This document shows, piece by piece, positions 1-40,367 of a DNA stretch of 64,000 nucleotides; position 1 is the first letter of the stretch; every line of letters begins with the position of its first letter. Source of the stretch: Candidatus Woesearchaeota archaeon (GTDB taxonomy: Archaea; Nanobdellota; Nanobdellia; Woesearchaeales; GW2011-AR9); assembly GCA_016181265.1 (NCBI GenBank), contig JACOZP010000008.1, forward strand, positions 132,583 through 196,582. Direction: 5' to 3'. The position numbers and the translations under genes are program-made. The notes under the pieces were generated by a model, which did not search any database, was not told the DNA's origin, and was given only the letters and a program-made list of their open reading frames with translations.

Positions 1-789
1 GTTTTTGAGATGAGCGAGAACAACATTTTTCCGCGCAGCGAGAACATTAGGAAGAGATTCATCGAAGGCATCGATCTTAATAGAATGGTTAGCGTTGTTC
101 TCTTGTCGATGAGTGGATGAGAAAGAGAGTATGTTGTAAAGGGAGAAATGTTTGATGTCCCGAAAAGCTTGTCTTAAAGCGTATAACCCTGCTTCTATAG
201 CGACTGCTCCATCTTTTACGAAGCCGACGATGATTTTTTCGTCAGGAACATAACCACTCTTCCGCACGATCCAATATGCCAAGTCTCCTTTCAATGATCC
301 TGAATGAGGAAAGAGACGATACTCGCGAGAATTTATCTCTTGACCACAAAGATCAACTCCCAGCAAGAACTCATTTCCCGAAAAATATACGATCACAACA
401 AGATCTGGTCTTTTATAATCTACAGTGAGAACGATGTTCTCAGAGTTTAATGTTGCTTGGAGAAGATCGTAAATCTTCTTGGCGATGGTTTGACGGTTAT
501 CTTGACCTTTAATATTTTCTACTTCGATTTTATATTTTTGGCCGGTGTGGAAGTAAGAAGAAACTTTTTCGGTAATCACAAATTGGTCCTGATCTTTACC
601 ATGACCGAGGAGGAGGACGAGACGACGAGGAGTTTGAGCGTGAAATAACAATTTTTCGACAGGTTCATGCTTTTCTGTAGAAAAGACAACCGCATCTCCC
701 ACGACTTCCCCTTTGATTTGTGTTAATTCAAAGAGTTCTTGTTGGGCAAGCTTGCCTAATCCGGGATTTACGAGAAGACCAAATTTCAT
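1..789 (-). CDS. THUMP-domain RNA (guanine-N2) methyltransferase-like protein, N-terminal part; ORF runs off the window start
   Basis: Manual minus-strand translation from ATG (revcomp cat 787-789): [37 protein letters not shown]...[41 protein letters not shown], open to position 1 with no stop. THUMP-like N-terminus followed by the LKPSLAAAMVRLSG-like motif of UPF0020/Trm14-type methyltransferases. Overlaps the gyrA stop by 2 nt. Confidence 0.5.
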
Positions 790-3254
790 TGTGGAGGACT
801 CTCCCCACCCTCTTCTACTTCATCAATGATAATCTTCGCTGCAGCGGCGAGCTGGTCACCTTCGCTGAGACGCATGACACGGACACCTTGTGTGGCACGC
901 CCGATCGTAGAGACCTCAGCACATTTCATCCGAATACCGATCCCTTGTTTAGAGATCAACATCAGATCTTCCGAGCCGTCAACAAGCATAACGGTTTGTA
1001 CGGGACCGTTCTTGTCGGTGATCTTGATATTGGTCACGCCTTTTCCTCCGCGATTGCAGAGGCGATATTCAGAGACGGGTGTTCTTTTCCCGTAACCATC
1101 TTCAGTGAGAGTAAGGATCTCCATATTCTCTTCAGCAGCAAGCATACCAATAACTTGATCATCTTCGTCTAAGCGGATACCGCGGACACCATGTGCGGCT
1201 CGCCCCATGGGACGAACGTCTTCTTCATTGAAACGATTTGCCTGGCCTCTTTTTGTGGCGAGGATGATCTCTTGGTCACCTTTAGTGTAACGAACATTGA
1301 CGAGAGTGTCTCCTTCATCAAGATTGATCGCGCGGATTCCTCCTTTGCGAGGATTGGCAAACTCTTCTAAGCTGGTCTTCTTGACAGTTCCTCGCTGAGT
1401 AGCCATAAATAAGTAGCCTTTATTGAAGTCGCGTACGGAAATGACTGCGGTGACCCTCTCGTTAGACTGCATTTCTAAGACATTAGCAATATGTTTCCCT
1501 TTCGATTCGCGGCTGGCCTCGGGGATGTGATACACTTTTAACCAATAGACTTGACCGTTATTCGTAAAGAAAAGAAGGTAATCGTGAGTGGAGCAAGTGA
1601 AGATCTTCTCGACAAAATCTTCTTCTTTCATACCAGCGGCACGGATGCCTTTCCCTCCGCGTTTCTGGGTGCGATAGACATCGAGAGGCATGCGTTTGAC
1701 GTAGCCAGAATTAGTGATCGTAACGACGACCTGTTCATCTTCGATCAGTTCTTCCATATCAAATTCGCCATCTTCCCCAGCAACAATACTGGAACGGCGA
1801 GCATTACCATAATTATTTTTTATCTCACGTAGTTCATCTTTGATAAGATCGAGTATTTTCTGTTCTGAATTAAGTATCTCTTGGTAGTAGATGATCTTCT
1901 GTAATAACTCGAGATGTTCATCTTTGATTTTCTCTTGCTCTAACGAAGCGATTTTCTGCAGGCGCAGGTCAAGAATGGCTTTGGCCTGCTCTTCGGTGAG
2001 AGCATAGGTGCTGGTCAAAAAAAGACGTGCGTCGTCTATTGTCCGGCTGCGCTTAATCCCTGCGATGACAGGATCTATGTTATTGAGTGCGATAAGAAGA
2101 CCTTCGAGAATATGAACCCGAGCACGTGCTTGTTGAAGATCATACTCTGTACGGCGGGTGATGACTATCTTGCGATGTTTAATATGCTCCTCCAGAAGAT
2201 CTTTTAGACCTAGAAGACGAGGTTCGTTGTTGACTAATGCCAGTAAAGTGATACCAAAAGAGATTTTGAGGCGGCTGAACTGATATAATTGGTTGATGAT
2301 AACCTGAGGGTCAACATCTCTCCGGAGTTCGATAACAACACGAATACCATCGCGGTCGGATTCATCATTGATATTACGGATGCCGATGATCCTTTTTTCA
2401 TTGACGAGATCAGCAATCTGTTGGATGAGCTCTTCTTTGTTAACTTGATAAGGGATCTCTGTAACAATAATCTTATCGTTATCTTCAACGTGGGAAACAG
2501 CTTTGATCGTGACTTTGCCTTTTCCTTTGGCGTAGGCATGAATCAACCCATTGCCGCACATCACTTCGCCGCCGGTGGGAAAATCTGGGCCAGGAACTAT
2601 TTTTGTCAACTCCTCTACGCTTGCTCCGGGATTATCGATAAGGTAGATGATGGCGTCAGCAATCTCATTGAGGTTATGGGGAGGTATATTCGTAGCCATA
2701 CCGACAGCGATCCCAGACGAACCGTTTACAAGGAGATTAGGAAGAACCGTAGGGAGAATGATCGGTTCTTTTAGAGAGCCATCAAAATTGTCCCTAAATT
2801 CAACAGTATTTTTCTCGATATCGTGCAGCATCTCTTCGGCAAGTTTGTTGAGCTTGGCCTCGGTGTACCTCATGGCAGCGGCGTTGTCACCATCGATACT
2901 ACCAAAATTGCCTTGTCCTTTGATCAAAGGGTAACGTAGAGAGAAATCCTGCGCCATCCTAACGAGAGAATCATACACGGCAGTGTCACCATGAGGGTGG
3001 TATTTACCGAGAACTTCCCCGACGATACGCGCACATTTCTTGAACGGCTTGTTATGGAACATGCCAAGATCATACATGGCATAGAGAATACGTCTGTGAA
3101 CTGGTTTAAGACCATCACGGACATCGGGCAGGGCACGGCCAACAATAACAGACATGGCATACGTAACATATGCCTCTTTCATCTCTAGTTCAATAACACG
3201 CGGGATGATCTTAGTGCTTTCTTCGGGCTTATTTTCAGGGTCGGGAGGGGTCAT
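786..3254 (-). CDS. gyrA: DNA gyrase subunit A
   Basis: 822 aa. Contains the [29 protein letters not shown] active-site region with catalytic Tyr context. The C-terminal beta-pinwheel carries the GyrA-box QKRGGKG, which argues for gyrase rather than ParC. Confidence 0.93.
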
Positions 3255-3430: not shown

Positions 3431-4087
3431 TCATTCTTCTTTCTTCTCCTGCAGTTCACCCATCGCTTTCTTAATCTCGTCTTTAGCCTCTTCCGTATTC
3501 TCATTAAGCTCGATGAGGCGTTCTACTTCATCTGCCTCTTTGTTCACTTCCTCTGCCTCTTTGAGAATCTCTTGGGGAACAAGTTTAATGAATGCCTGTT
3601 TGGCTTCTTCACTAGGAAGGTCAAAATATTCGAAGAACTTTTTGTTTAGTTTTATTTTGAATGTACGGCCAAATTTCTCTTTTGTGATGAATCCCTGTTC
3701 TTCTAATAACCGCATATGATCATACGCCGCAGCACTGCGTAGTTTGATGACATCTGATTGGACGATGGGGTATCTCCAAGCGATAACGGCAAGAGTTTCC
3801 ATCAAAGGGCGTTCTAATTCTGTGCTGGAGACAATGCTGCTGACTAAAGGGATGAATTCGTCACGGACAGTCAATTTCCAACCGTTCTCTTTTTTAGTTA
3901 AGCGCAACGAATGGTCGCGTCCTTCGTATTCTTGCTGGAGCCTCAAAACAATTTCCTCGGTCTGCTCAACAGTTAGCGAGCAGAGGCTAGCGATACGTTC
4001 AGTGGTGATCTCTTTGCCGACAGCAAAGAGGACGGCTTCTACTTTCTTTTCGTTAACATCCATCTTAATGCTCCGCCATCTCTTCAC
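3431..4087 (-). CDS. scpB: Segregation and condensation protein B (ScpB)
   Basis: 218 aa. EAVLFAVGKEIT...ETLAVIAWRYPIVQSDVIKLRS matches the tandem winged-helix ScpB signature. Acidic coiled C-terminus. Confidence 0.8.
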   Translation of the reverse strand: MKRWRSIKMDVNEKKVEAVLFAVGKEITTERIASLCSLTVEQTEEIVLRLQQEYEGRDHSLRLTKKENGWKLTVRDEFIPLVSSIVSSTELERPLMETLAVIAWRYPIVQSDVIKLRSAAAYDHMRLLEEQGFITKEKFGRTFKIKLNKKFFEYFDLPSEEAKQAFIKLVPQEILKEAEEVNKEADEVERLIELNENTEEAKDEIKKAMGELQEKKEE

Positions 4088-12724: not shown

Positions 12725-13258
12725 GTGATGAATAATTGGATATTTTCTTTGTTAAGAGCATTAAAAGAGGTATATTCCAGGAAGCAGTATTATATTTATT
12801 CTTTACTCTTTGCGCTCTTTATCTTTTCTCTTAATCCGCTGCTACGAAATTATAAGCTACTCAAAGCACAATTCTCTTGGTTGTTGGTATTGCAGTTAAT
12901 ACTAGCATCACCAGTTACCTCAGGAACAGTACCATTCGTATTGCTGACTATTCTTTCAATCTTATCAGGAATAGTCATGGCGTTTAGTGTTTATGTGATC
13001 CGACGACAGATTTCACAAGGAGTAAATCTCGGTCTGACGGGTGTAATTATAGGGATCGTAGCACCCGCTTGTCCTTCTTGTGCATTAGGCATCTTTGGGG
13101 TGCTTGGTCTGGGAGGGTTACTAACCATTCTTCCGTTTAAGGGATTAGAACTGGGATTTTTAGGTATATTCCTTCTGATCATTTCATTATTATATCTAAG
13201 CAAGAAGATTGAAGCAAAAGTTTGTGTTTTACCACTGAAGAAAGGAAGGAAGAGATGA
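12725..13258 (+). CDS. Membrane protein with intramembrane CPSC (CxxC) motif
   Basis: 177 aa, about 4-5 TM. GIVAPACPSCALGIFGVLGLGG lies in a predicted helix. No identifiable family. Confidence 0.4.
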   Translation: MMNNWIFSLLRALKEVYSRKQYYIYSLLFALFIFSLNPLLRNYKLLKAQFSWLLVLQLILASPVTSGTVPFVLLTILSILSGIVMAFSVYVIRRQISQGVNLGLTGVIIGIVAPACPSCALGIFGVLGLGGLLTILPFKGLELGFLGIFLLIISLLYLSKKIEAKVCVLPLKKGRKR

Positions 13259-13272
13259 AGAAAAGAGGAGAC

Positions 13273-13626
13273 TTACTGCATTAGGCAGCCTGTCTTTTGA
13301 GAAAGATCTTCTAAGCTTACTGTTCCTTCTAGACGCGTACCATTTTCTAATTCCCACGTAGGGTATCCTTTAATTTCTTTCTTTACACAGTACTCAGTCT
13401 GGGTACTGCCGTCGGGTAGAGAACATTCAACATAGTTAATGTATTGGAAACTACTGCCAAACATTTCTTTTTGATCTTTGCAATGAGAACACCAAAAAGC
13501 ACCATACATGGCTACACCTTTTTCAGTAAGGCAAGATGCGAAATAGTCATACTTTGTGCTGTTTGACGAACAACCGATAAGGAAAATGAGAGAAATGAGG
13601 ATGAAAAAGATTATGAGCGGTCTCAT
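13273..13626 (-). CDS. Thioredoxin-like lipoprotein (VKOR-associated-Trx-like domain; WCSHC active site)
   Basis: 117 aa. Signal peptide with lipobox-like LIGC. YGAFWCSHCKDQKEMFG...INYVEC...GYPTWELENG resembles the periplasmic Trx-like domain fused to bacterial VKOR homologs. Confidence 0.6.
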   Translation of the reverse strand: MRPLIIFFILISLIFLIGCSSNSTKYDYFASCLTEKGVAMYGAFWCSHCKDQKEMFGSSFQYINYVECSLPDGSTQTEYCVKKEIKGYPTWELENGTRLEGTVSLEDLSQKTGCLMQ

Positions 13627-13703
13627 TGAAGTTAGAAGAAATCACTGTTATTTAAATGTTATGAGCTACTAAGAGTAGCGGTACCATGGTTTTCTGGTTA
13701 TCC

Positions 13704-14207
13704 CTACATAAAGCCGAGTCGTCTTCCGCGGGTTGAGTTCGCTTTCTTGATTCCTTCTATAGTCTCTTCAAGAGAATAGCACCATGGCTCGAGTACTACA
13801 CATACACGAGGGAGATCAAAGAGAACAGGTTCATAAAGATGAAGATAAGGAGGAGTATTGGTCGCTTCGGTGTGATAGAAGAAAGCGACGCCTTGTCCAT
13901 GTTGGGGAAGATGATTCCTCTCCTGAAGAAGAATGGTGCGATTATACTTTGTTTGGAGAGCCCTCATCTCCCAGGGTGATGCTTTTTTTATAGTAGAGAA
14001 TGAATGTTTACCGGGTTGGAGAGAGCCGTTAAGATAGTAGTCAAAAACGTTCCCGTGAATACCATCGATGATTATCTTGAATAGTTTTTCACCTTGCACC
14101 CCCGGCTGGAGATGAAATTCGAGACGGACACCATCTTCGCAGTAGAAGGGGGATTTCACCCGGTACAATAGGTCTCGAGGAGCGAGGGGTTCTTTTTCTT
14201 TGGTCAT
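13704..14207 (-). CDS. Hypothetical protein
   Basis: ORF 13704-14279. The start at MTKEKEP (14207) abuts the ribL stop. No recognisable motifs. Confidence 0.35.
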   Translation of the reverse strand: MTKEKEPLAPRDLLYRVKSPFYCEDGVRLEFHLQPGVQGEKLFKIIIDGIHGNVFDYYLNGSLQPGKHSFSTIKKASPWEMRALQTKYNRTILLQERNHLPQHGQGVAFFYHTEATNTPPYLHLYEPVLFDLPRVCVVLEPWCYSLEETIEGIKKANSTRGRRLGFM

Positions 14208-14208
14208 A

Positions 14209-14625
14209 TTATTTTCTTTCTTCGATGAGCTTGCGAAGGAAACTACTTTTTTGAGACTCTGATTTAAATGGTTTTGCACGGACTATCGTAGGATAGAGGT
14301 TACGTGATTGAAGTTCATCGGTTAATTTTTCTTCTGCTATCTGATGGTCGTAGCCGAGACAAATGACATCTGGCCTTTTTTCACAGATAATTTTAAAGTG
14401 ATCATTCTGATCGCCAAGAATTGCCTCATCGACAAGGCGTAAGGATTGGACTAGTTTTAACCGTTGCTGTTCGTTAAAGATGATCGGTTTTTTTTGCTTT
14501 TCTTTTGTCTTATCGCGAGCAATGACAACAAGCAAGTAATCACCATATTCTTTAGCTTGTTCAAAGTAGTTGAGATGACCAAGATGCAAGAGATCAAATG
14601 TCCCGAAGCACATGACGGTTTTCAT
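14209..14625 (-). CDS. ribL: FAD synthetase (FMN adenylyltransferase), archaeal RibL type
   Basis: MKTVMCFGTFDLLHLGHLNYF (HxGH nucleotidyltransferase motif). VIARDKTKEKQKKPIIFNEQQRLKLVQSLRLVDEAILG resembles archaeal RibL. The longer ORF start (14694) would overlap the upstream gene. Confidence 0.7.
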   Translation of the reverse strand: MKTVMCFGTFDLLHLGHLNYFEQAKEYGDYLLVVIARDKTKEKQKKPIIFNEQQRLKLVQSLRLVDEAILGDQNDHFKIICEKRPDVICLGYDHQIAEEKLTDELQSRNLYPTIVRAKPFKSESQKSSFLRKLIEERK

Positions 14626-14626
14626 T

Positions 14627-16747
14627 TTAGATTTTTTTGGGAATAAGTGTGGCTTGGTGGATGAGGAGGGTGGCAGTATTCTTTTTTTCTTCAATGATCT
14701 CGGCGCTTTGGATCTTTATCTTTTTCTGAAAGAGAGGGCAATCTAATACCACCGATTCAAATTCACCACCCTCACCAGCGATGTTGAGGTATGTTTTCTC
14801 ACGAATCTTTTTTAAGCGTTCAATATCAATCTTAGTGATTGGTCGGTTTAGCCAAGACTTATCTAAGCCCTCCGCAGCAACGGCGGTAAAGATGATTTCA
14901 AATCCAGCATGAAACAGTTCTTCCATATGAGCATCTGGCTGCTTATGCCATAGAGGAGAAAATATCTTAAGACCGAGATTATCACAAATCTTTTCGATGC
15001 GATCACGTTGGTACGTCGAGAATAAAGCTCCACTGACAATCCCATCAATGTGATATTGTTCTTTAGCTTGCCGGAGAGCTTTCTCTAGATCGAGAAGCTC
15101 GATTTCTTTTTCTCCTGTTGTTTCTTGAATGATAAGCGGCAGTTCCATTGCCTGTGCTTGTAATTCCACTATCTCTACACCTGCACTTTGGAACATATAG
15201 GAATGAGAGTTCTGGGATTTTAATGTGATAAGACAAGTTAAAGCATAGTTTTGTTGTTTCATGATGTAGGCTGCAGCAGTGGAATCTTTGCCTGAAGAAA
15301 ACAGGACGCCAAGTTTAAGGTTTGGTCTAGGGTAGAATTGTTGGAGGTATGTTGACTTACTGGTGTAGCCTTGTTTTTTGGAAAGACGTTCGATAGCGTT
15401 ATCGATGCGTGAGCCGTACTGGGCGGCAACTTTTCTACGAAAAGCAAATTCTTCTGGAATGCCTTCTTTTTGTGCGATCGTACGGAGAATAATTTTAGTG
15501 TGTAAATCATCGATCTTATATTTAGGTGGTATCTTAAGTGAATATGTAATCAATTCTTTATCAAGATAAGGTAAACGAAGTTCAAGATTATTGTCCATAG
15601 TGAGGACATCGTCTCGATAGAGATCTCGTTCGTAGAGCTTGATCAACCCAGAAACACATTCTTGATTGATATTAGCGGATTGCTTATGCCGTTCATAGCC
15701 AGCAAAGATCTCTTCGCTGCCGAGACCGGAGAAGATTACTTTACAGCCGTCTTCTTTAGCCATCTCACAAGCAAGATAAAAAGTAAGAGCAACGCCAACT
15801 TTAGTGACATTGGAATCTTCGATAAGAGGGACTATTTTTTGAAGGAGGGGGGGGATTTCATCTATCTTCACTTTTTTGATCTTTAAGTTTAAGTGTAGTT
15901 GTTGCGCGATCTCCTGTGCGGCGAGCAGATCAGAGGGGGGAACGGTGTCGTTATCGAGGACAGCAGTATAGCACGTAAACTCATAGTCGCGATCTTTAAG
16001 GAATTTAGCCAGATACGTGGAGTCGATTCCTCCAGAGAAGAGAACGCCAAATTTCTGTTGAGGGATGCGTTTCTCTATAGCTTGATGGAGTAATTCTGTG
16101 GTTCTCTCCCTAATCCGTTGGATATCTTCTTGATGTTCAGGAAGGTAGTGGAAGAAATTGCGTCGTTGGATAGAATAAGTATTTGTTGAAATAGTGTACC
16201 GAAGTATAGACCGCGGGTTGAGTTCTTGGATATCAGTGAAACCTATTTTTTCTAATACTTTTTTTTCAGAGGCAAAGGCAAAAGAACCGTTGGTATGGGT
16301 AAACCACAATGGTTTCTCTCCAAGTATGTCACGAATAAGGGTGACGGTATCTTTTTTCCAGTAAGCGGCGGCGTAGACGCCGTCGAGTTCGTCTACTTTT
16401 TCAGTGCCGAACTTTTCAAAGAGTTGAAGAAGGAGATCGGCATCGTTTCGGGCTTTGAGACTAAATTTTTTTGCTAACTCTTTCCAATTATAGATCTCAC
16501 AATTAGTTGAAAGAACACCTTCTCGTCGTAGCGGTTGGGACACGTGATCGACAACGGCATGGAGGGTATGGCCAAGAAGGTGATTACCTTTGATCAAAGG
16601 AAGGTCCCGGAGGGTTGGATTGGTGACGATTTCTGTTTCGGAAGCGACACCACAGCCATCTTTTCCACGGTTATGTAACGAGGCTAACGCTGACCTAATC
16701 TTGTCCTTTGCGTCCGGATGGTTAAAGATGCCAATGATGCCACACAT
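14627..16747 (-). CDS. Three-domain fusion: class-II glutamine amidotransferase + asparagine synthetase (PP-loop SGGIDS) + C-terminal MJ0570/Dph6-like diphthine-ammonia ligase domain (PP-loop SGKDS, EGGEFES)
   Basis: 706 aa continuous ORF. MCGIIGIF N-terminal nucleophile. FSGGIDSTYLAKFL AsnB PP-loop. C-terminal about 230 aa: LFSSGKDSTAAAYIMK...DGIVSGALFSTYQRDRIE...IAGEGGEFESVVLDCPLF aligns closely to MJ0570-type diphthine-ammonia ligase. Confidence 0.75.
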   Translation of the reverse strand: MCGIIGIFNHPDAKDKIRSALASLHNRGKDGCGVASETEIVTNPTLRDLPLIKGNHLLGHTLHAVVDHVSQPLRREGVLSTNCEIYNWKELAKKFSLKARNDADLLLQLFEKFGTEKVDELDGVYAAAYWKKDTVTLIRDILGEKPLWFTHTNGSFAFASEKKVLEKIGFTDIQELNPRSILRYTISTNTYSIQRRNFFHYLPEHQEDIQRIRERTTELLHQAIEKRIPQQKFGVLFSGGIDSTYLAKFLKDRDYEFTCYTAVLDNDTVPPSDLLAAQEIAQQLHLNLKIKKVKIDEIPPLLQKIVPLIEDSNVTKVGVALTFYLACEMAKEDGCKVIFSGLGSEEIFAGYERHKQSANINQECVSGLIKLYERDLYRDDVLTMDNNLELRLPYLDKELITYSLKIPPKYKIDDLHTKIILRTIAQKEGIPEEFAFRRKVAAQYGSRIDNAIERLSKKQGYTSKSTYLQQFYPRPNLKLGVLFSSGKDSTAAAYIMKQQNYALTCLITLKSQNSHSYMFQSAGVEIVELQAQAMELPLIIQETTGEKEIELLDLEKALRQAKEQYHIDGIVSGALFSTYQRDRIEKICDNLGLKIFSPLWHKQPDAHMEELFHAGFEIIFTAVAAEGLDKSWLNRPITKIDIERLKKIREKTYLNIAGEGGEFESVVLDCPLFQKKIKIQSAEIIEEKKNTATLLIHQATLIPKKI

Positions 16748-16802
16748 ATATCCTCTGTTCTACGGAATGTTTATAAATATTTCACTTCTTTTTAGTGGTG
16801 CT

Positions 16803-17321
16803 ATGGATGATGAAGGGAAATTGATCGAGTTAGATGCGTTTAGACAGCGTCAACAAAGAGCTCTCAAAAGAAACGGGCTAAAAGAGAAAGTGTTGAAAAG
16901 AGGAGCAGTGCTTGTGCTTAGCGGGATAAGTGCTGGCTTTCTTTTTTTAGCGGGATATGGGACCTATAAACTCTTCTCCTCGGAACCAGTTCCTCGCGCT
17001 GTTCATCATGATGCTAGTACGGATTATCAACCGGCGCAAATTGAGAAAGTTTTTCTTCCGCCTAACGTAGAATTAATCCACTATACTCCAGAGCAAACTC
17101 AACGAGAAGGAGTGGTCATTAATTATTCAGGATATCGTATCTCTTACATAGACACGGACGGGGATCATACGGTAGATCAAATTATAATTGATGATACTAC
17201 AAGTTCAGGATTTTCTCCGTTAGAAAAGAAAGTAGAGATCATGCCGATTGGTTCTGTTCATTTTAAGTATGGGACGGAATTGTTGAGAGGAGAACGAGAG
17301 AGATATTTTAGAGAACATTAA
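16803..17321 (+). CDS. Hypothetical single-pass membrane protein
   Basis: ORF 16590-17321. The upstream part overlaps the asnB-like gene on the other strand, so the start is placed at MDDEGK (16803). One TM (AVLVLSGISAGFLFLAGYG). Confidence 0.35.
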   Translation: MDDEGKLIELDAFRQRQQRALKRNGLKEKVLKRGAVLVLSGISAGFLFLAGYGTYKLFSSEPVPRAVHHDASTDYQPAQIEKVFLPPNVELIHYTPEQTQREGVVINYSGYRISYIDTDGDHTVDQIIIDDTTSSGFSPLEKKVEIMPIGSVHFKYGTELLRGERERYFREH

Positions 17322-17343
17322 AGGTCACAATCAAAAATAAGAT

Positions 17344-18441
17344 CTATCTCACATGCAATTCTAAGATATCTCCATCCTGCATGATATGATGAAGCATGTG
17401 TCTTTGCCCGGGAAATTTTGCTGACTTCCCCCAGACGCGACAGAATTTAAATTTCTTAAGAAAGTCTTTGTGCAGCTTGTTACAGATGTCCCCGACGGAT
17501 GAGCCGCTGGTGACAATCATCGGCTCGTTCATGTCAGCATCTTTCTTTGGTTCTTTCATGTAGACGCGAATGAAATTTAGTTTCTGAAAGATCAATTCTC
17601 GAAGAGTATTAATATTGATGTCGGCTTCAGCAGAGACAACAATATCGGCATTGATCTCTTGTTTAACACGCTCTACTTGATCCGCAGTGGCAAGATCAGC
17701 TTTACTGATACACGTGATTGCAGGGAGATATTTTTTGCTCCCTTCAATGCAATCGATGAGATCATCTACATTGATGGGACTGCGGATAAGAATGTTAGCA
17801 CTATTGATCTTGAATTCACGGAGAATTTGGGCAATAGTCGAATCGTCGATGTCGAGCGCAACGGTCTTGCCTATTTGGATGCCGCCGCGTGCTGTTTTTT
17901 TGATGAAGACTTCCGGCCTAGTCTTATTGAGACGGATACCGGATTCCCAGACTTCACGAAGAATGGCGGGATGATGTTCGGGATGATTAACGTCGATAAC
18001 CATGAGGACAAGATCAGCGTTGCGGATGACGGCAAGTACTTCTCGACCTCGTCCACGACCGGAGGCAGCGCCACTGACAATACCGGGAACATCTAAGATC
18101 TGAATTTTAGCTTGTTTGTATTCCATAACTCCGGGAATGACACTTAATGTAGTGAACGCATAGGCAGCGACTTCGGAGTGGGCACCGGTGAGCTTGTTGA
18201 GTAGAGTAGATTTTCCTGCCGAGGGAAAGCCGAGCAGGAGAACGGTGGCATCACCGGATTTACGGACAGCATAACCATGTTCCGACTGCCCCGTCTTTTG
18301 CTGAACACGTGAGTCTTGCTTCTCTTTGAGCATAGCCAACTTGGCTTTGACGAGACCAATATGGCCTTGTGTCGCTTTGTTGTATTTTGTCTTCTTCAGC
18401 TCGTCTTCCAATTCTTTGATCTTATCTTTATAATCGGGCAT
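17344..18441 (-). CDS. Developmentally regulated GTP-binding protein (DRG/Obg-family GTPase with C-terminal TGS domain)
   Basis: 365 aa. GFPSAGKSTLLN G1 motif. DVPG G3 motif. N-terminal KATQGHIGLVKAKLAMLK DRG-specific helix. TGS-like C-terminus. Confidence 0.85.
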   Translation of the reverse strand: MPDYKDKIKELEDELKKTKYNKATQGHIGLVKAKLAMLKEKQDSRVQQKTGQSEHGYAVRKSGDATVLLLGFPSAGKSTLLNKLTGAHSEVAAYAFTTLSVIPGVMEYKQAKIQILDVPGIVSGAASGRGRGREVLAVIRNADLVLMVIDVNHPEHHPAILREVWESGIRLNKTRPEVFIKKTARGGIQIGKTVALDIDDSTIAQILREFKINSANILIRSPINVDDLIDCIEGSKKYLPAITCISKADLATADQVERVKQEINADIVVSAEADININTLRELIFQKLNFIRVYMKEPKKDADMNEPMIVTSGSSVGDICNKLHKDFLKKFKFCRVWGKSAKFPGQRHMLHHIMQDGDILELHVR

Positions 18442-18527
18442 TGCTATCTCAAATAGAGGGGGTGTTTTTTAATGTTTGTGCTGAGAAGTGTTAGAGAGAG
18501 AACCATTCTCCACCATAAAATGGATAA

Positions 18528-19418
18528 TCATTGGACAGATAAGAACACGCCGAGAACCATAACAATAAAGAGGAGTCCTTTCTTAATGATATCACGAGCG
18601 GTAATCTTTTCTTTAAATGCGTGGGGAAAGAGAGTAGTGAAGAGGAGAGCGTAGAGAAGGACAAAGAATGGTTGAAATGATGCTACTCCTTCCATCAGGG
18701 TTACGGGGATGAATGTTAAGACGTAAGTATAAAGGGCAAATCCACCAAAGGTTGCTAGTTCCTCAAGAAAGAAGAAATGAGAATTTGTCTTGAAGCGATG
18801 AACTTGATCAATAATATTTCTACGCAGACGGGAAGAGGATAAGAGGGGGAGAGAGAATAGAAATGAAAAGACAAGACTCCACGTCAATCCTGTGCTCCAA
18901 CTGGCGGATGCGAAGATATATTTGAAAATGACAACTTCTAGTGAGAGGATGAGTGAAGCGAGACTCATGTAGAGGAATGAACGGTTAAAGCGGAGCGTTT
19001 TTCCGCCATTCCAGGTGAGCAAAGCGCTGCAAAGGACAATGATCAAAAAACCAAAATATTGGGTGAGTTGCAACCGTTCATCGACAATAAGAAAAGCAAG
19101 CAAGGGAACAAATATCTTCCCTAATGAGAACAAGGAGACAACAATAGAAGTGTCGTCATTTTGTAATGCTTTGTAGTAGGGGTAGCGATACCCAATGTCA
19201 GTGAGACCGAGAAGGAGAAAGAAAGGCAGTTCAGACCACGTCGGTAGAGAAGGCGTTTGAAAGAAAAAGATGAGCGGTACAAAAATCAGGTTAAATACGG
19301 AAGAATAAAAGATGAGAGTGGGGGTGTCTTTGAATAAGCGGTTGGTGAAATAGGTATCAAAGATATTTGAAAGAGCAAACAACGACGATCCAAAAAGAAC
19401 GATAAAGATCCAGAACAT
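18528..19418 (-). CDS. EamA/DMT-like 10-TM transporter
   Basis: 296 aa polytopic membrane protein with duplicated 5-TM halves. Confidence 0.45.
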   Translation of the reverse strand: MFWIFIVLFGSSLFALSNIFDTYFTNRLFKDTPTLIFYSSVFNLIFVPLIFFFQTPSLPTWSELPFFLLLGLTDIGYRYPYYKALQNDDTSIVVSLFSLGKIFVPLLAFLIVDERLQLTQYFGFLIIVLCSALLTWNGGKTLRFNRSFLYMSLASLILSLEVVIFKYIFASASWSTGLTWSLVFSFLFSLPLLSSSRLRRNIIDQVHRFKTNSHFFFLEELATFGGFALYTYVLTFIPVTLMEGVASFQPFFVLLYALLFTTLFPHAFKEKITARDIIKKGLLFIVMVLGVFLSVQ

Positions 19419-19467
19419 AAAAAGGTTAATTCCTAGGGATTTAACAATCTTTCGTCAAACAAAAAAT

Positions 19468-19920
19468 TTAGTCTCTAAATTTATCTTTACGGAGAGCTTC
19501 TATAGTCGCAAGAAGTTCACGTGCGAGTTCGTTTACTTTTGCAAGGTTTTTTGAGGAGATACCCATGTCTAGGGCTTGGTGTGAAGCATACTCATGAAGC
19601 GCTTGAGCTAAATTTTTTATATTTTCATTAACAAAAGGATTTGCTGGTTTTTCAAGTTGGTCAAGCAGTTGACCTCTTCCGCCCGTAAACTCAGAGCACT
19701 CCCCTAACTTTTGATTTATCTTTTTTAACGTTGTAGGAATTGATGAAGACAAAGCAATAATGTTGTTCAAAATAGATGTTAAAAGGTTTAATTTTGTCCC
19801 TGCTACTGGATCTAAATACGGTTTATACTTACCAAACCAACCAGCCATAATCACACCTCTTCCAAATCTCTTTTTATTTAAAGAGAATATAAGCTTAATA
19901 AATCTTTGGGTAAAGGCCAA
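19468..19920 (-). CDS. Hypothetical protein
   Basis: 150 aa ORF, no motifs recognised. Confidence 0.3.
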   Translation of the reverse strand: MAFTQRFIKLIFSLNKKRFGRGVIMAGWFGKYKPYLDPVAGTKLNLLTSILNNIIALSSSIPTTLKKINQKLGECSEFTGGRGQLLDQLEKPANPFVNENIKNLAQALHEYASHQALDMGISSKNLAKVNELARELLATIEALRKDKFRD

Positions 19921-19967
19921 CTTTAGAAAATGTGTAGATTAATTTTTTCTTCAGAATTGAAGAAAAG

Positions 19968-19983
19968 TAAATTATTTATAGAG
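19968..19983 (+). promoter_or_regulatory. TATA-like element (TAAATTATTTATAGAG) upstream of the ABC transporter gene
   Basis: About 20-30 nt upstream of the GTG/ATG start at 20000-20003, which suggests a leaderless or short-leader transcript. Confidence 0.35.
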
Positions 19984-19999
19984 ATAGCTGTTTTAAAAT

Positions 20000-21751
20000 G
20001 TGATGAACAAAGAAGGGAGCTGGGCAACAAAGATTCTGACAATCGTTCCTGAAATTAAGCAAGGCGTGGCGAGCGGCTTTTTAATATCATTATTTTATGA
20101 AAGTATTAAATTTATCCCAATAATTCTTCTTAAATTTATTATTGATTATTTTGTTACAGGAAAAACAGTCGCCACTCAACTGATATATGCAATAAGTGGT
20201 GTCTTTATCTCCTATGTTGTATTAGAATTGATAGAATACTTTTCTAAAAGAGCAGCATTCCGTTGGAATCTTCAATATGAAAAAACAATATTGCAAAAAG
20301 CAGAGAAGAAGTTATTAGAATTAGATATCGGATATCATGAGACTTTCAACACGGGAGCACAAGTCTCTAAAATTTCTAAAGGAGCACATCGCTTAGCGGA
20401 ACTGATTTGGTTCGCGTTTGAAGAATTTATACCAACACTAGTTCAATTGTTGATGACTGTTGGCTTATTGTTATATGAACAGTGGTTGCTTGCCGTGATC
20501 TTTGGTGTTTTTGTACCTCTAATCATCTGGATCACGATCTATGAAGGAAAAAAAGTGCAGCCGCTACGTCAACACTATCACCAAAAATATGATGAAGCAG
20601 TAGGTGAGTTGGGAGAAACTCTCTTTAATATATCCACTGTGAAGGATTATGTGCAGGAAAAACAACAAATCAAGAAATTTGAGCGACTCTTACAAGAGTA
20701 TTCTGCTTTAGCAGTCGCACGTCATGATTATTCTAGTCGTGTTTTAACTCTGCGTGATCTTCTCATAAATGGGGGGAGAGTAGCAACCCTTGGTTTTGCT
20801 TCTTATCTCGTAGTGCAAGGAGAATTAAGCGCGGGAAGTTTAGTCTTAGTATACACGCTGACAGAAAAAGCATTCTTGTCATTATATCGCATCGGAAGAC
20901 TTTATAGTTATCTTGGTGATGCAATGGAGTCAATCAACCGCCTAGCAAACTTGCTGCAAGAAAAAGCAACTGTGGCAAACATCCCTAATGCACAAACTGT
21001 CTCCCATCTGGAAGGAGCGATTGAGTTTAGAGGAACTGTTTTTTCTTACGGTGGAGAGAAAGAAGTTCTGAATAATTTCACATTAAAAATAGAACCCCAC
21101 CAGATTGTGGCATTGGTGGGAAGATCGGGATCGGGAAAAAGCACGGTCGCTAAACTCTTGCTGCGAAATTATGATGTTTCCACGGGTGAGATATTAGTTG
21201 ATGAGAAAGATATTAGGACCTATAAGATTGAAGATTATAAAAAGAGAATTGCGGTAGTATCACAGCAAGTGGAGATTTTTAATCGGAGTATTATGGATAA
21301 CATCCGTTTTGCAAAATTGGGTGCAACACGTGAGGAGGCTATCAGTGCAGCAAAAAAAGCGCATGCTCATGAATTTATTATGGATTTTCCACAAGGCTAT
21401 GATACGATCGTAGGGGAGAAAGGTGTGCGCCTCTCTGGTGGACAAAAACAGCGAGTTAGTATTGCTCGGGTATTGTTAAAGAGTCCGGATATGTACATTT
21501 TTGACGAGGCAACATCATCGCTGGATTCTGAATCAGAACAATATATCCAGAAATCAATTTTTTCAATTGCTGGGCAAAAGACAACTATTATTATCGCACA
21601 TCGTCTTTCGACGATCCGCAAAGCAAATCTGATTGTGGTTATGGATAAAGGAAGAGTAGTAGAACAAGGAACATATGAACAGTTACTGCAGAATAAAGGG
21701 GCGTTCTGGAAGATGATTCAATTGCAGGAAGGGGCAGAGTTGAGAGAGTAA
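20000..21751 (+). CDS. ABC exporter, fused permease/ATPase (MsbA-like)
   Basis: 583 aa. Six-TM N-terminus. GRSGSGKST Walker A. LSGGQKQRVSIARVLL signature. IFDEATSSLD Walker B. Nominal start is GTG at 20000 followed by ATG at 20003. Confidence 0.9.
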   Translation: MMNKEGSWATKILTIVPEIKQGVASGFLISLFYESIKFIPIILLKFIIDYFVTGKTVATQLIYAISGVFISYVVLELIEYFSKRAAFRWNLQYEKTILQKAEKKLLELDIGYHETFNTGAQVSKISKGAHRLAELIWFAFEEFIPTLVQLLMTVGLLLYEQWLLAVIFGVFVPLIIWITIYEGKKVQPLRQHYHQKYDEAVGELGETLFNISTVKDYVQEKQQIKKFERLLQEYSALAVARHDYSSRVLTLRDLLINGGRVATLGFASYLVVQGELSAGSLVLVYTLTEKAFLSLYRIGRLYSYLGDAMESINRLANLLQEKATVANIPNAQTVSHLEGAIEFRGTVFSYGGEKEVLNNFTLKIEPHQIVALVGRSGSGKSTVAKLLLRNYDVSTGEILVDEKDIRTYKIEDYKKRIAVVSQQVEIFNRSIMDNIRFAKLGATREEAISAAKKAHAHEFIMDFPQGYDTIVGEKGVRLSGGQKQRVSIARVLLKSPDMYIFDEATSSLDSESEQYIQKSIFSIAGQKTTIIIAHRLSTIRKANLIVVMDKGRVVEQGTYEQLLQNKGAFWKMIQLQEGAELRE

Positions 21752-21796
21752 ACTCTCTGATAATAACCATAATCTTTATATACAAACTTCCCGCTT

Positions 21797-22342
21797 TTGA
21801 GCAGAATGGTCAATGAAGTGATTGAAACAGCACAATCATATTTTTATGATATCACCCTAGGGGTAGCGATCCTCTTTATTGGTTTTGCATTGGGTATTAT
21901 TGTGAAGAAAGTAGTGTTTAAAGTTCTCAAAGGAGCCGAACTGAATAAAGTTGTTAATCGAGTGGGAATCCGCCACGATCTAGAGAAATGGATCAGTTCT
22001 TTGGCATCGTTTATCATTTACTTGATCACGATCGTCTTTTTTATGAATTATCTCAACATAACGTCAATTGTGTTGTATTTAATTGTAGGCGCGGTATTGA
22101 TGCTTCTGATTCTTACTTTTCTCGTCGGTCTGAAAGATGTTATTCCCAATTTTGTGGCATGGGTTATCATCCAAAAGAGAGAATTGATCCACGAAGGAAG
22201 AAAGATCGATGTACGAGAGATATCCGGTACAGTGGAGAAGATAGGATATTTAGAAACAGAAATCAAGACGGAGAATGGAGATACACTCTACGTTCCAAAC
22301 TCATTATTTCTTAAATCAAAGATGAGGGTGCGGAAAGAATGA
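21797..22342 (+). CDS. Small MscS-like mechanosensitive channel protein
   Basis: 181 aa. 3 TM followed by GRKIDVREISGTVEKIGYLETEIKTENGDTLYVPNS (MscS beta-domain signature). Confidence 0.5.
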   Translation: MSRMVNEVIETAQSYFYDITLGVAILFIGFALGIIVKKVVFKVLKGAELNKVVNRVGIRHDLEKWISSLASFIIYLITIVFFMNYLNITSIVLYLIVGAVLMLLILTFLVGLKDVIPNFVAWVIIQKRELIHEGRKIDVREISGTVEKIGYLETEIKTENGDTLYVPNSLFLKSKMRVRKE

Positions 22343-22668
22343 TCGATATTGTCAATGATGTCTGGAAAGGCCGGAGGGATTATCTTCTTACCCATGGTGC
22401 GTTATCGAAACGTCCTGATCGAGGGAAGAATGAAAAAGTAAATATTCCCTGCTTTCGAGAGGATTTAGGCAGAGGGTTACTGTCTGATTATCAAGGGGAA
22501 TGGGTAGTGTATCATAAAGGTGTCTTGTGTGGGGTGAGTACGGATGGAAAAGAACTTTATGAAACAGCAATAGAGTATTATGGATCAACCAATCTCGCGG
22601 TATTTAGAGTTCCACGAAGTGGAGAAAATCTAGAAAAAATGTTTGATGATGCTCAAGGTCAATTCTAA
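22339..22668 (+). CDS. Hypothetical small protein
   Basis: 109 aa. 4 nt ATGA-type overlap with the upstream gene suggests co-transcription. Confidence 0.4.
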   Translation: MIDIVNDVWKGRRDYLLTHGALSKRPDRGKNEKVNIPCFREDLGRGLLSDYQGEWVVYHKGVLCGVSTDGKELYETAIEYYGSTNLAVFRVPRSGENLEKMFDDAQGQF

Positions 22669-22673
22669 CGCTT

Positions 22674-22916
22674 CTATCTCTTTATACTTTCCAGAAGACT
22701 AACGACATCCCAGACCTGTGTCCGATGATAGGAGGAAAGGTCAAGAGTGTTAAGTTCTTCTAATTCTAAGAGGGCTTTTTCAACAGCAAGTTCAGCGTTG
22801 CTGTTAAGAAGCGAAACAATCGCTGCGGTCCGTTCGCGGAAGACTTTTCCAGAATCTTCATCATCGATGAGACTTTGAAGAAGTTCAACGACATCTTGGA
22901 TTATTTTTGTTTTCAT
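22674..22916 (-). CDS. UPF0147-family archaeal small helical protein
   Basis: 80 aa. VFRERTAAIVSLL...RTQVWDVVSLLE resembles the archaeal UPF0147 pattern (R..A..AI..L....RT.IW.VVS.LE). Confidence 0.55.
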   Translation of the reverse strand: MKTKIIQDVVELLQSLIDDEDSGKVFRERTAAIVSLLNSNAELAVEKALLELEELNTLDLSSYHRTQVWDVVSLLESIKR

Positions 22917-23236
22917 TTTTTCTGCTGTAGTTCTTTGACAGCTTCTTCTTGTACGGATTCTATGCTTCTTTTTATATTTTCTTCTTGCTTAAGCAAATTC
23001 TTAAGGCGAAGTTCAGCGATCTCTTTCTTCTGTTGAAGATCAAGAAGAAGATTTTGAGGTGGAGAAGCGATCATGATCTTTCCGACAATTTTGTATGCTT
23101 TATCGGTTTTACCAAGTTCTTCACAGGCAGAATTAAGTTCGATCAGCGCTGATTCTTGCTGTTGTTTTTGGAGAAGGATATTTTGCATATTCTGCTGCAA
23201 CAGCTGTAACTGATCTATTTTTGAATGAGTAGCCAT
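22913..23236 (-). CDS. pfdB: Prefoldin beta subunit
   Basis: 107 aa. Two coiled-coil arms flank a beta-hairpin (AYKIVGKIMIA). 4 nt overlap with the downstream gene. Confidence 0.7.
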   Translation of the reverse strand: MATHSKIDQLQLLQQNMQNILLQKQQQESALIELNSACEELGKTDKAYKIVGKIMIASPPQNLLLDLQQKKEIAELRLKNLLKQEENIKRSIESVQEEAVKELQQKK

Positions 23237-23281
23237 GAGAGTGGTACCTCTTGTATTTTAAACCGGGAAGGGAAAAAGAGT

Positions 23282-23416
23282 TTAACGAGCTTTGACGTGG
23301 TTAACAGTACGACGGTCTTTGTACAGAATCTTACCACCACAGTAAGGGCAACGGACTTTCGTCCGAGTATATTCATCTTCTACTTTTTTTCCGCAATCAA
23401 AACAGACGTAATACAT
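23282..23416 (-). CDS. rpoP: DNA-directed RNA polymerase subunit P (Rpo12/RpoP)
   Basis: Manual translation gives MYYVCFDCGKKVEDEYTRTKVRCPYCGGKILYKDRRTVNHVKAR (44 aa). It has a C-x2-C...C-x2-C zinc ribbon typical of RpoP. The ORF is below the 60 aa cut-off of the ORF track. Confidence 0.75.
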   Translation of the reverse strand: MYYVCFDCGKKVEDEYTRTKVRCPYCGGKILYKDRRTVNHVKAR

Positions 23417-40335: not shown

Positions 40336-40367
40336 GTTTATATAGTTTATATTGTGTTTTTCTACTT

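Follow-up and report, generated by a model that had tools for sequence, protein, structure and literature searches.

A candidate glutamine-assisted diphthamide synthetase in Woesearchaeota: Dph6 fused to a class-II glutaminase and a non-canonical asparagine-synthetase-like domain

The window, a 64-kb stretch of DNA from a Candidatus Woesearchaeota archaeon, contains a gene that joins three domains in one frame. The ORF lies at nt 14627-16747 of the minus strand (stop codon included) and encodes a protein of 706 amino acids consisting of a class-II glutamine amidotransferase (GAT-II), an asparagine-synthetase-like (AsnS-like) PP-loop domain and a Dph6 domain. An initial annotation of this DNA had described a single 706-aa ORF, and we found the frame to be without an internal stop, as described. 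The stop-to-stop frame opens just four codons 5' of the ATG, indicating that MCGIIG is the true N-terminus, and the product is 100% identical to P0001, which NCBI lists as 'diphthine--ammonia ligase [Candidatus Woesearchaeota archaeon]'. A putative promoter element, the TATA-box-like sequence TTTATAA (nt 16771-16777, minus strand), precedes the ATG by about 25 nt. A cytidylyltransferase-like gene with an HxGH motif (nt 14209-14625, minus strand) starts 2 nt after the stop codon of the fusion gene and is probably co-transcribed with it; we know of no link between this gene and diphthamide. There was no dph2, dph5, EF-2 gene or second dph6 within the 64-kb window, and tRNA and Rfam scans of the window were both empty.

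The fusion is not an assembly artefact. Adjacent asnB-like and dph6 genes could in principle have been joined by an assembly or sequencing error (a lost stop or a frameshift), and two-gene split versions do occur in Methanococcoides. However, the junction falls in an interdomain linker, TYLQQFYPRPNLKLG (nt 15308-15352, minus strand, residues 466-480), that is in frame and conserved, with Y467, L468, F471, Y472, N476, L479 and G480 nearly invariant in the alignment of relatives; the initial annotation had placed it at about nt 15200-15330. A Logan assembly of SRR12113430 agreed with window positions 12812-23406 at each of the 10,595 nt (0 mismatches), a match that represents a second assembler and not a second sample, as the reads are perhaps the same or related. 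A search for the same fusion in related genomes, which had been proposed as a check, found full-length fused homologues in 225 distinct clusters at 90% identity (NCBI, JGI, ENA, Logan and Tara sources), and complete genomes carry the fused form, for example that of Ca. Nanosalina VS9-1 (NZ_CP180230.1, locus L015). Because the second assembly is identical across the locus and fused homologues number in the hundreds, we reject this explanation and regard its probability as negligible.

The C-terminal domain is Dph6 (diphthine--ammonia ligase, MJ0570/PF0828-type; nt 14648-15316, minus strand, residues 478-700). The class tested was the archaeal type (TIGR03679; Pfam PF01902). A Pfam scan matched Diphthami_syn_2 at residues 478-691 (E = 2e-60), and an NCBIfam scan gave 251.9 bits for Dph6_archaeal TIGR03679, above the cutoff of 197.3. 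The sister ATP-pyrophosphatase families were below their cutoffs (PAB0415_fam, 71.5 versus 250; TTX_0299, 33.9 versus 250). The domain matched PH1257 with E = 1e-51 and PF0828 with E = 5e-49, and its predicted model superimposed on the PF0828 and PH1257 structures with a TM of 0.95 and an rmsd of 1.2-1.5 A. The PP-loop, SSGKDS (nt 15281-15298, minus strand, residues 484-489), has S484, G486, K487 and D488 invariant among relatives, and the motif of the Dph6 subfamily, EGGEFE (nt 14756-14773, minus strand, residues 659-664), is also invariant. EGGEFE is the counterpart in the fusion protein of PF0828 E183, E186 and E188, which have been named as Dph6-specific (PMC3541065). The full Dph6 signature at the modelled EF-2 interface comprises PF0828 S44, Y45, E78, Y103, Q104, A149, E183, E186 and E188 (PMC3541065), and all nine residues are present and conserved here (S516, Y517, E550, Y579, Q580, A625, E659, E662 and E664), as placed by pairwise alignment to PF0828, with conservation taken from the alignment of relatives. 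The TIGR03679 score, the signature residues and the fold uphold the Dph6 identity given to this domain in the initial annotation. Scores and signature residues exclude a non-Dph6 branch (B12-salvage type, PAB0415 or TTX_0299), which had been named as the alternative family. The complete genomes of methanogens with AsnB linked to DUF71, by fusion or in an operon, have a single DUF71 homologue each, which serves as a proxy for the genome studied here. Stand-alone archaeal Dph6 was itself still awaiting experimental confirmation in the 2021 literature, and yeast Dph6, according to published reports, needs no AsnB-derived module to complete the amidation step.

By its active-site residues, the middle domain does not qualify as a canonical asparagine synthetase. 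This domain (nt 15332-16102, minus strand, residues 216-472) matched Pfam Asn_synthase at residues 217-359 plus a second stretch, and the GAT and AsnS-like domains together match the 1CT9 fold in the predicted model (TM 0.81). The score for asn_synth_AEB (TIGR01536) in the NCBIfam scan was 262.6 bits, just under the cutoff of 267.1, and PRK09431, the second curated AsnB family, scored 203.7 with a cutoff of 499. The PP-loop of this domain, SGGIDS (nt 16019-16036, minus strand, residues 238-243), is invariant in three-domain forms (55/55) and in glutaminase-less forms (23/23); the domain scan confirmed that two PP-loops stand in tandem, this one and SSGKDS at residues 484-489. The AsnB motif SGEGSDE has SGLGSEE as its counterpart (nt 15710-15730, minus strand, residues 340-346), in which Leu342 (nt 15722-15724) occupies the position of the catalytic Glu (E. 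coli E348, human Glu-364). That position is Leu in 39 of the 55 three-domain relatives and 19 of the 23 without GAT, and is never Glu in the archaeal clade; the human ASNS variants E364A and E364Q are inactive (PMC6748925). Residues on the aspartate side are also replaced (human Arg-339 by Gly318, Thr-337 by Lys316 and Asp-334 by Asn313), and the position of human Thr-336, at which T336I leaves ASNS nearly inactive, is T315 in our protein and Val in most relatives. Because positions that AsnB needs for catalysis carry other amino acids, residues 1-470 do not form a bona fide AsnB core; the initial annotation was correct that they contain GAT-II and Asn_synthase domains, but not that these form a genuine asparagine-synthetase core.

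The residues of the AsnS-like domain that are retained suggest that it probably binds ATP, with a complete ATP/PPi site. These are S340, E345, E346, D375, R378, E389, R391 and K439, the last being the counterpart of human Lys-466 and E. coli K449. K439 and an invariant AAQYGS loop lie at nt 15410-15433 (minus strand, residues 439-446), and it is only at residues 442-445 that pLDDT in the AF2 model drops below 50; the loop may be a mobile active-site lid. The ATP-site residues (PP-loop, E346, R378, K439 and AAQYGS) were conserved in 21-23 of the 23 glutaminase-less forms. Retention of the ATP site without the glutaminase indicates a role for the AsnS-like site beyond that of a conduit, and the domain may itself catalyse an adenylation.

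The N-terminal domain is a class-II (Ntn) glutamine amidotransferase domain (nt 16133-16747, minus strand, residues 1-205; Pfam GATase_6/7) that is probably active in the Woesearchaeota protein, going by its conserved residues. The Pfam scan matched GATase_7/GATase_6 at residues 52-166. None of 113 relatives differs at the nucleophile Cys2 (nt 16742-16744, minus strand) or at R27, N82, E84 or D102. When compared with the human glutamine-binding network (Arg-48, Asn-74, Gly-75, Glu-76, Asp-96), N82, E84 and D102 are present along with the Cys2 nucleophile, and two positions differ: Gly is Cys83, and the glutamine-contacting Arg (E. coli R49, human Arg-48) has given way to Leu62, with an invariant His63 right after it (nt 16559-16564). 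Because this Arg is Leu throughout the archaeal clade, the use of glutamine by the fusion protein is not assured. The interface with the AsnS-like domain appears to depend on the presence of the glutaminase: E389 (human Glu-414) was kept in 51/55 forms with the GAT domain and 6/23 without, and R391 (human Arg-416) in 54/55 and 5/23, indicating functional coupling of GAT to the AsnS-like domain.

The association of the AsnS-like domain with Dph6 recurs across archaea. We found fusions in about six lineages (Nanoarchaeota/Woesearchaeota, Iainarchaeia, Altiarchaeota, Nanosalina, Methanosarcinales and Halobacteriota). In Methanococcoides, the two genes are adjacent and split exactly at the linker/domain boundary; at further loci, AsnS-like and dph6 genes occur as divergent or nearby pairs; two-domain AsnS-like-Dph6 proteins without a glutaminase exist; and some AsnS-like-only genes have no dph6 within 10 kb. 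Loci from Methanolobus (L010), Methanohalophilus (L024) and Nanosalina (L015 and L017) matched all three domain HMMs, which were built from relatives of our protein, and clustered with it in a neighbour-joining tree of the AsnS-like domain (Kimura distances, no support values). Because the tree has no support values, we suggest only tentatively that the fusion had a single origin and underwent secondary fission. One candidate stand-alone relative (P0149) was rejected as a contig-truncated fusion, labelled 'partial' by NCBI; the second homologue search accordingly returned mostly further fusions, and the stand-alone class was vetted by C-termini. The three domains, their order, their conserved residues, the orthology to Dph6, the compactness of the predicted structure and this recurrent genetic coupling are supported directly by the data.

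The constant partner of Dph6 is the AsnS-like domain and not the glutaminase. In Methanococcoides, Methanohalophilus sp. RSK and Methanospirareceae, the glutaminase is dead, with Gly, Gln or Thr in place of its nucleophilic Cys, and at least 23 forms lack the entire domain, some of them on 112-136 kb contigs, so that the glutaminase decays or is lost while the AsnS-like ATP site is invariant. The AsnS-like-Dph6 pair persists in every lineage with a dead or missing glutaminase, and the supply of ammonia therefore cannot explain the association in general. The proposal in the initial annotation that the glutaminase feeds Dph6 is plausible for the protein studied here, but it is not the general logic of the pairing.

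Based on these results, we lean towards the view that the fusion gene is the organism's diphthamide synthetase, a Dph6 fused to an AsnB-derived module that supplies ammonia, and that in the Woesearchaeota lineage this synthetase is probably glutamine-assisted. The N-terminal Cys, after removal of the Met, would hydrolyze an amide donor, probably glutamine, and the ammonia would enter an AsnB-type interdomain tunnel leading to the remodelled AsnS-like PP-loop site. From that site the closely packed Dph6 active site would have access to it, and it would there attack adenylated diphthine, such that the Dph6 domain would amidate diphthine on EF-2 in an ATP-dependent reaction. From the evidence above we infer that the glutaminase is active, that ammonia is channelled to the Dph6 site and that EF-2 is the substrate. 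The AF2 model of the whole chain (pLDDT 91.6, pTM 0.89) predicts a compact protein, and these high values together with the short conserved linker indicate a fixed architecture. Counting against this view are the Leu in place of the glutamine-contacting Arg, the loss or decay of the glutaminase in several lineages, the retention of the AsnS-like ATP site in forms that lack it, the sufficiency reported for yeast Dph6, and the lack of dph2, dph5 and EF-2 genes in the 64-kb window.

It is possible, though we are inclined to doubt it, that the AsnS-like domain is an unrecognised ATP-using component of archaeal diphthamide/EF-2 modification and that it is Dph6's true conserved partner. It may carry out a second adenylation/amidation step or be an obligate catalytic partner, with the glutaminase as an optional addition, repeatedly lost or inactivated. 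The hallmarks of the clade are Leu at the catalytic Glu, His after the lost glutamine-binding Arg and the C-terminal AAQYGS loop. Rather unlikely, in our estimate, is an arrangement of two independent amidoligases in one polypeptide, in which the GAT and AsnS-like module acts on a carboxylate other than that of aspartate (a different group on EF-2, some other component of translation, or a small molecule) and consumes the ammonia in the AsnS-like site, Dph6 uses free ammonia, and the fusion reflects membership of a pathway or complex and not channelling. This would fit the retention of 21-23 of 23 ATP/adenylate residues even without a glutaminase, the conserved, clade-specific replacement of aspartate-pocket residues, and the AsnS-like-only genes that have no dph6 within 10 kb. 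There are AsnB paralogues with other substrates, such as those that amidate mDAP in peptidoglycan (PMC8554201), beta-lactam and carbapenam synthetases are among the closest folds, and a reviewer of the 2012 paper raised the same possibility (PMC3541065). However, no candidate second substrate is known and diphthine offers just one carboxylate, the high pTM and the tight, conserved linker suggest that the sites act as one unit, and the association is specific to Dph6 and recurs across phyla.

We consider it quite improbable that the protein is a bifunctional enzyme in which a genuine glutamine-dependent asparagine synthetase (EC 6.3.5.4), served by the glutaminase, is fused to Dph6. The AsnB fold (TM 0.81), a TIGR01536 score just 4.5 bits under the cutoff, and the retained PP-loop and counterparts of Lys-466, Asp-400 and Arg-403 are what such an enzyme would have; some homologues are named asparagine synthase by JGI, and 'AsnB' has been counted among the few amino-acid biosynthesis genes of nanohaloarchaeal genomes (PMC10266531). 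Against this, both curated AsnB cutoffs were missed, Glu-364, which neither Ala nor Gln can replace in the human enzyme, is Leu, and Arg-339, Thr-337 and Asp-334 are Gly, Lys and Asn, with the Thr-336 position mostly Val in relatives. In addition, the module tracks Dph6 and not amino-acid biosynthesis genes.

Archaea and eukaryotes share diphthamide as a conserved modification of EF-2, and to our knowledge the last step of its synthesis in archaea has never been reconstituted. The fused enzyme is compact and widespread, and thus offers a system for testing glutamine-driven amidation of diphthine. Some databases and genome papers annotate the gene as asparagine synthase and thereby probably credit reduced DPANN genomes with more amino-acid biosynthesis than they have. 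If the AsnS-like domain is the true partner of Dph6, the 'AsnB' of these genomes is not an amino-acid biosynthesis gene, and the published ammonia-supply idea accounts at best for part of the picture, in particular lineages.

The fusion architecture and the ammonia-supply idea were already known, and the value of this analysis lies in its refinements. The initial annotation took the architecture to be undescribed, incorrectly: de Crecy-Lagard et al. 2012 (Biol Direct 7:32; PMC3541065) reported AsnB (GAT-II + Asn_Synthase_B_C)-DUF71 fusions in Methanohalophilus, Methanosalsum and Ca. Nanosalinarum, the examples being Methanohalophilus mahii, Methanosalsum zhilinae and Ca. Nanosalinarum J07AB56, and already proposed that they supply ammonia from glutamine. 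We found no biochemical study of the fused enzyme in the literature after 2012. What is new here is the non-canonical nature of the AsnB-like domain, its recurrent link to Dph6, and the decay of the glutaminase versus the invariance of the AsnS-like ATP site, refinements that address a question standing since 2012, the job of the second PP-loop domain.

The fusions described in 2012 share with ours the order of GAT-II, Asn_synthase PP-loop and DUF71 and the rationale of ammonia supply; ours differs in coming from Woesearchaeota/Nanoarchaeota and in having an intact glutaminase. Methanohalophilus sp. RSK, from the same genus as a published example, has lost the nucleophile, and half of its glutaminase domain is unrecognisable. 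The AsnB of E. coli (1CT9) and human ASNS (6GQ3) have the same two-domain fold (TM 0.79-0.81), and the N-terminal Cys, N74, E76, D98 and the PP-loop are kept, as are the counterparts of ASNS Lys-466, Asp-400, Arg-403 and the interdomain Glu-414 and Arg-416. In contrast to these enzymes, our protein has Leu at both the catalytic Glu (E348/E364) and the glutamine-binding Arg (R49/R48), has replaced Arg-339, Thr-337 and Asp-334, and falls below the curated family cutoffs. The LtsA/AsnB mDAP amidotransferases and the beta-lactam and carbapenam synthetases likewise combine an AsnB fold with an altered acyl pocket and are annotated as asparagine synthase, but they act on other substrates in other lineages and none is linked to Dph6. 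Glutamine-dependent NAD+ synthetase provides an analogy, drawn partly from PMC3376133 and partly from general background. It too is an ATP-PPase amidoligase with glutaminase-fused and glutaminase-less forms, but its glutaminase is of the nitrilase and not the Ntn type, it has one PP-loop domain, and its substrate is a small molecule. Stand-alone archaeal Dph6 (MJ0570, PF0828 and PH1257) and the N-terminal domain of yeast Dph6 have the PP-loop, EGGEFE and EF-2-interface residues in common with the fusion, whose Dph6 domain is 41% identical to stand-alone Dph6 with a TM of 0.95 to solved structures. Those proteins draw on free ammonia and consist of a single domain in archaea or, in eukaryotes, carry RidA-like domains at the C-terminus, whereas the Woesearchaeota protein adds an N-terminal AsnB-derived module.

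The fusion of a class-II glutaminase (GAT), an AsnB-derived (AsnS-like) domain and Dph6 is encoded by one continuous gene. Positions 14627-16747 on the minus strand contain a single open reading frame of 706 amino acids with no internal stops. The stop-to-stop frame opens just 4 codons 5' of the ATG, so MCGIIG is the true N-terminus; an Ntn-type glutaminase requires such an N-terminus. A Pfam scan placed GATase_6/7 at residues 52-166, Asn_synthase at 217-359 plus a second stretch, and Diphthami_syn_2 at 478-691 (E = 2e-60). The two PP-loops are SGGIDS (residues 238-243) and SSGKDS (484-489). The NCBIfam scores of the 706-aa protein were 251.9 bits for Dph6_archaeal TIGR03679 (cutoff 197.3), 262.6 bits for asn_synth_AEB TIGR01536 (slightly under the cutoff of 267.1), and 203.7 bits for PRK09431 (cutoff 499). 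The Pfam and NCBIfam results bear out the initial annotation of one reading frame with three domains and two PP-loops. The junction it placed at 15200-15330 is present, a little off that position, at approximately nt 15308-15352, and the interdomain linker TYLQQFYPRPNLKLG is kept among relatives.

An origin of the fusion by assembly or sequencing error has a negligible probability, and was excluded based on an identical second assembly, the abundance of fused homologues and the conserved linker. The Logan assembly of SRR12113430 matched window positions 12812-23406 with 0 mismatches in 10,595 nt, and is evidence from another assembler, not from another sample, because its reads may be the same as, or related to, those of the window. 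Two homologue searches (NCBI, JGI, ENA, Logan, and Tara; full length defined as ≥640 aa) found at least 225 distinct 90%-identity clusters sharing all three domains at full length with 51-80% identity; the fusion thus does occur elsewhere, where the initial annotation had suggested looking for it. An identical protein is in NCBI as 'diphthine--ammonia ligase [Candidatus Woesearchaeota archaeon]', on a contig of 201,692 bp. A cytidylyltransferase-like gene (14209-14625, minus strand; FGTFDLLHLGH motif) begins 2 nt past the stop of the fusion gene and, given this spacing, is probably transcribed together with it. Nothing apparent ties this gene functionally to diphthamide.

The C-terminal domain is Dph6, as initially annotated. 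It scored above the curated TIGR03679 equivalog cutoff, far ahead of the sister-family scores (NCBIfam), and aligned to PH1257 (E = 1e-51) and PF0828 (E = 5e-49). Nine residues at the modelled EF-2 interface of PF0828 are specific to Dph6 orthologues: S44, Y45, E78, Y103, Q104, A149, E183, E186, and E188 (PMC3541065). Their equivalents here (S516, Y517, E550, Y579, Q580, A625, E659, E662, and E664) are all invariant or nearly so in 113 relatives. An AF2 model of the fusion protein from a 113-sequence alignment (pLDDT 91.6, pTM 0.89) matched PF0828 and PH1257 with a TM of 0.95 and an rmsd of 1.2-1.5 Å. There was no dph2, dph5, EF-2 or second dph6 gene within the 64-kb window. M. mahii, M. zhilinae, and Methanococcoides burtonii have one DUF71 homologue each (Supplementary Table S1, PMC3541065), and therefore the AsnB-linked copy is the sole Dph6 candidate in these three complete genomes.

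The residues of the AsnB-like part indicate that it is not a canonical asparagine synthetase. Its modelled fold resembles E. coli AsnB (TM 0.81) and human ASNS (TM 0.79). Residues were equated by HMMER alignments to 1CT9 and 6GQ3, with roles from PMC6748925. The glutaminase keeps the N-terminal Cys, N82, E84, and D102; the AsnS-like domain keeps the PP-loop, S340, E345 (human Asp-367), E346, D375, R378, and K439 (human Lys-466, essential); and the interdomain residues E389 and R391 (human Glu-414 and Arg-416) are also kept. Human Glu-364 is replaced by Leu342, Arg-339 by Gly318, Thr-337 by Lys316, and Asp-334 by Asn313, contrary to the asparagine-synthetase core initially annotated. Most relatives have Val at the Thr-336 position. 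In human ASNS, E364A and E364Q are inactive and T336I is nearly so (PMC6748925). In the glutaminase, Leu62 stands in place of the glutamine-contacting human Arg-48 (E. coli R49), and the next residue, His63, is invariant. The replaced states are shared across the whole clade and are not peculiar to the window's gene.

Homologues fell into three tiers. Bacterial matches have the canonical Arg and Glu. In basal archaeal stand-alone proteins (Methanobacteriaceae, ANME-1, Methanoperedens, Methanocella, Bathyarchaeia, and Njordarchaeum), Gln occupies the Glu-364 position and both Arg residues are already gone; these proteins still exceed the TIGR01536 cutoff. In the Dph6-linked clade the Glu-364 position is Leu, and there are two further changes, L50 to His and G75 to Cys. 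The asparagine-synthase label given to this module in reduced DPANN genomes is likely a misannotation. Ten stand-alone archaeal 'asparagine synthase' loci, from Methanobacteriaceae (L028, L033, L036, L037, L040, L044), ANME-1/Methanophagales (L043, L047, L052), and Njordarchaeum (L026), have Gln in the catalytic-Glu position, and neither the glutamine-binding Arg nor the equivalent of Arg-339 is present in them. NCBIfam scans of four of these (L026, L028, L037, L043) gave 286-361 bits, above the AsnB equivalog cutoff. The annotation of these ten loci as Asn synthetases may be wrong.

The association of AsnS-like and Dph6 domains is recurrent and takes several forms. We searched 50%-identity representatives exhaustively and scanned loci twice, scoring with domain HMMs. 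Fusions of all three domains are present in Nanoarchaeota/Woesearchaeota, Iainarchaeia, Altiarchaeota, Ca. Nanosalina (including one in a complete genome), Methanosarcinales (Methanolobus, Methanohalophilus), and Halobacteriota. Two Methanococcoides species have a two-gene operon broken exactly at the domain boundary, with gene 1 ending in YINSF and a stop, and gene 2 starting from GTG, with KLGVLFSSGKDS. The split is real, since the two species differ in their junction DNA. Adjacent or divergent gene pairs were found at four loci (L022, L042, L079, L133). At least 23 forms lack the glutaminase and consist of either the AsnS-like and Dph6 domains or a lone AsnS-like domain; some of them are on 112-136 kb contigs with no GAT ORF within 10 kb. 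More distant stand-alone GAT-AsnS proteins had no dph6 neighbour, and ordinary stand-alone Dph6 genes had no AsnS-like neighbour. In a rough neighbor-joining tree without support values, all Dph6-linked forms were in a single derived clade, the Methanococcoides split was nested within fused Methanosarcinales sequences, and the glutaminase-less forms were mostly in one subclade.

Residues of the AsnS-like domain that face the glutaminase are relaxed in forms that lack it. E389 was present in 6/23 glutaminase-less forms compared to 51/55 three-domain forms, R391 in 5/23 compared to 54/55, and D380 in 0/23 compared to 46/55. The PP-loop, E346, R378, K439, and the AAQYGS loop were conserved in 21-23 of the 23. 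The glutaminase N-terminus is MGRIAG (Cys to Gly) in Methanococcoides (L021, 9401-11814; L049, 9608-11873), MQKLIS (Cys to Gln) in Methanohalophilus sp. RSK (L024, 9521-11764; half of the domain recognisable), and MTRILG (Cys to Thr) in a Methanospirareceae MAG (L023, 55-2286). Further catalytic residues have decayed in all three, and the Cys is also missing in several of the HMM-scored 50%-identity representatives. For the genus that served as its example, the published explanation of GAT as the source of NH3 therefore probably does not hold. Cys2, R27, N82, E84, and D102 are invariant in the 113 relatives of the window's protein.

The relaxation of E389, R391, and D380 without a glutaminase, and their retention with one, suggests a functional coupling between the AsnS-like domain and the glutaminase where the latter is intact, as in the fusion protein of the window and in its relatives among DPANN. 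Conservation of the ATP site without a glutaminase, together with the nucleophile losses, points to the AsnS-like PP-loop domain as the general partner kept by Dph6, its nucleotide site apparently under selection with or without glutaminase. The initial proposal that glutaminase feeds Dph6 fits the intact catalytic residues of the window's lineage, but the glutaminase is dead or absent in several lineages that keep AsnS-like-Dph6. The remaining interest is in the role of this second PP-loop domain, in the evidence that Dph6 constantly keeps it, rather than the glutaminase, as a partner, and in the likely misannotation of the module.

We lean toward the view that the fusion protein is the organism's diphthamide synthetase, aided in this lineage by the Ntn glutaminase, with NH3 channelled to Dph6. 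The glutaminase would release NH3 from a presumed amide donor (the Arg corresponding to R49 is lost), the NH3 would reach the remodelled AsnS-like site by an AsnB-type tunnel and continue from there to the Dph6 site, and Dph6 would act on EF-2. The high pTM of the model and the short conserved linker argue for one compact machine. The main alternative, an AsnS-like amidoligase for another carboxylate that uses up the NH3 itself, is possible though doubtful; it is favoured by an ATP site that stays strictly conserved even where the glutaminase is lacking, and by the precedent of AsnB paralogues that act on other substrates. A genuine asparagine synthetase fused to Dph6 is improbable given the loss of Glu-364 and the aspartate-side residues.

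The window is archaeal, encoding PolD DP1 and DP2, MCM, Cdc6/Orc1, TBP, and TFE. A 974-bp non-coding gap (39394-40367; GC 0.21-0.27) adjoins cdc6/orc1 (38191-39393, minus strand), flanked by PolD DP1 and DP2 (32849-38147) and MCM (42068-44089). The motif GTTAAATG(C/T)AAT is present in at least four copies, in both orientations, around an AT-only stretch at approximately 39660-39790, and the sign of the GC skew flips in the gap, which is a probable replication origin. A run of very large plus-strand ORFs (49072-51966, 52932-55304, 55340-58144, and 58240-63999) resembles the big surface proteins typical of DPANN genomes; one, of >1919 aa with CarboxypepD_reg repeats, continues beyond the window end, and two (964 and 934 aa) had no Pfam matches. 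A full-length DNA gyrase subunit A (786-3254, minus strand; DNA_topoisoIV and six GyrA C-terminal repeats) is beside ScpB (3431-4087). A cluster at 44986-47756, with a THUMP/ThiI-ferredoxin-like gene (plus strand) and minus-strand ThiF and PP-loop ATP_bind_3 genes that overlap by 8 nt, is suggestive of tRNA thiolation or of sulfur-carrier activation.

An AsnB (GAT-II + Asn_Synthase_B_C)-DUF71 fusion was reported by De Crecy-Lagard et al. from Methanohalophilus mahii, Methanosalsum zhilinae, and Ca. Nanosalinarum, with the glutaminase proposed as the source of NH3; a reviewer of their paper raised the questions of which of the PP-loop domains consumes NH3 and what reaction the AsnS-like domain catalyses (PMC3541065). 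Therefore, the initial annotation was wrong to call the architecture undescribed, and its idea of ammonia from glutamine was not new. Our literature search found no biochemistry of the fused enzyme after 2012, and in 2021 the archaeal Dph6 assignment was still described as awaiting experimental confirmation. We conclude that the fusion gene is real and widespread, that its architecture and proposed logic have been known since 2012 and are mirrored in current annotation, and that the Woesearchaeota protein adds a member to the known class of AsnB-DUF71 fusions.
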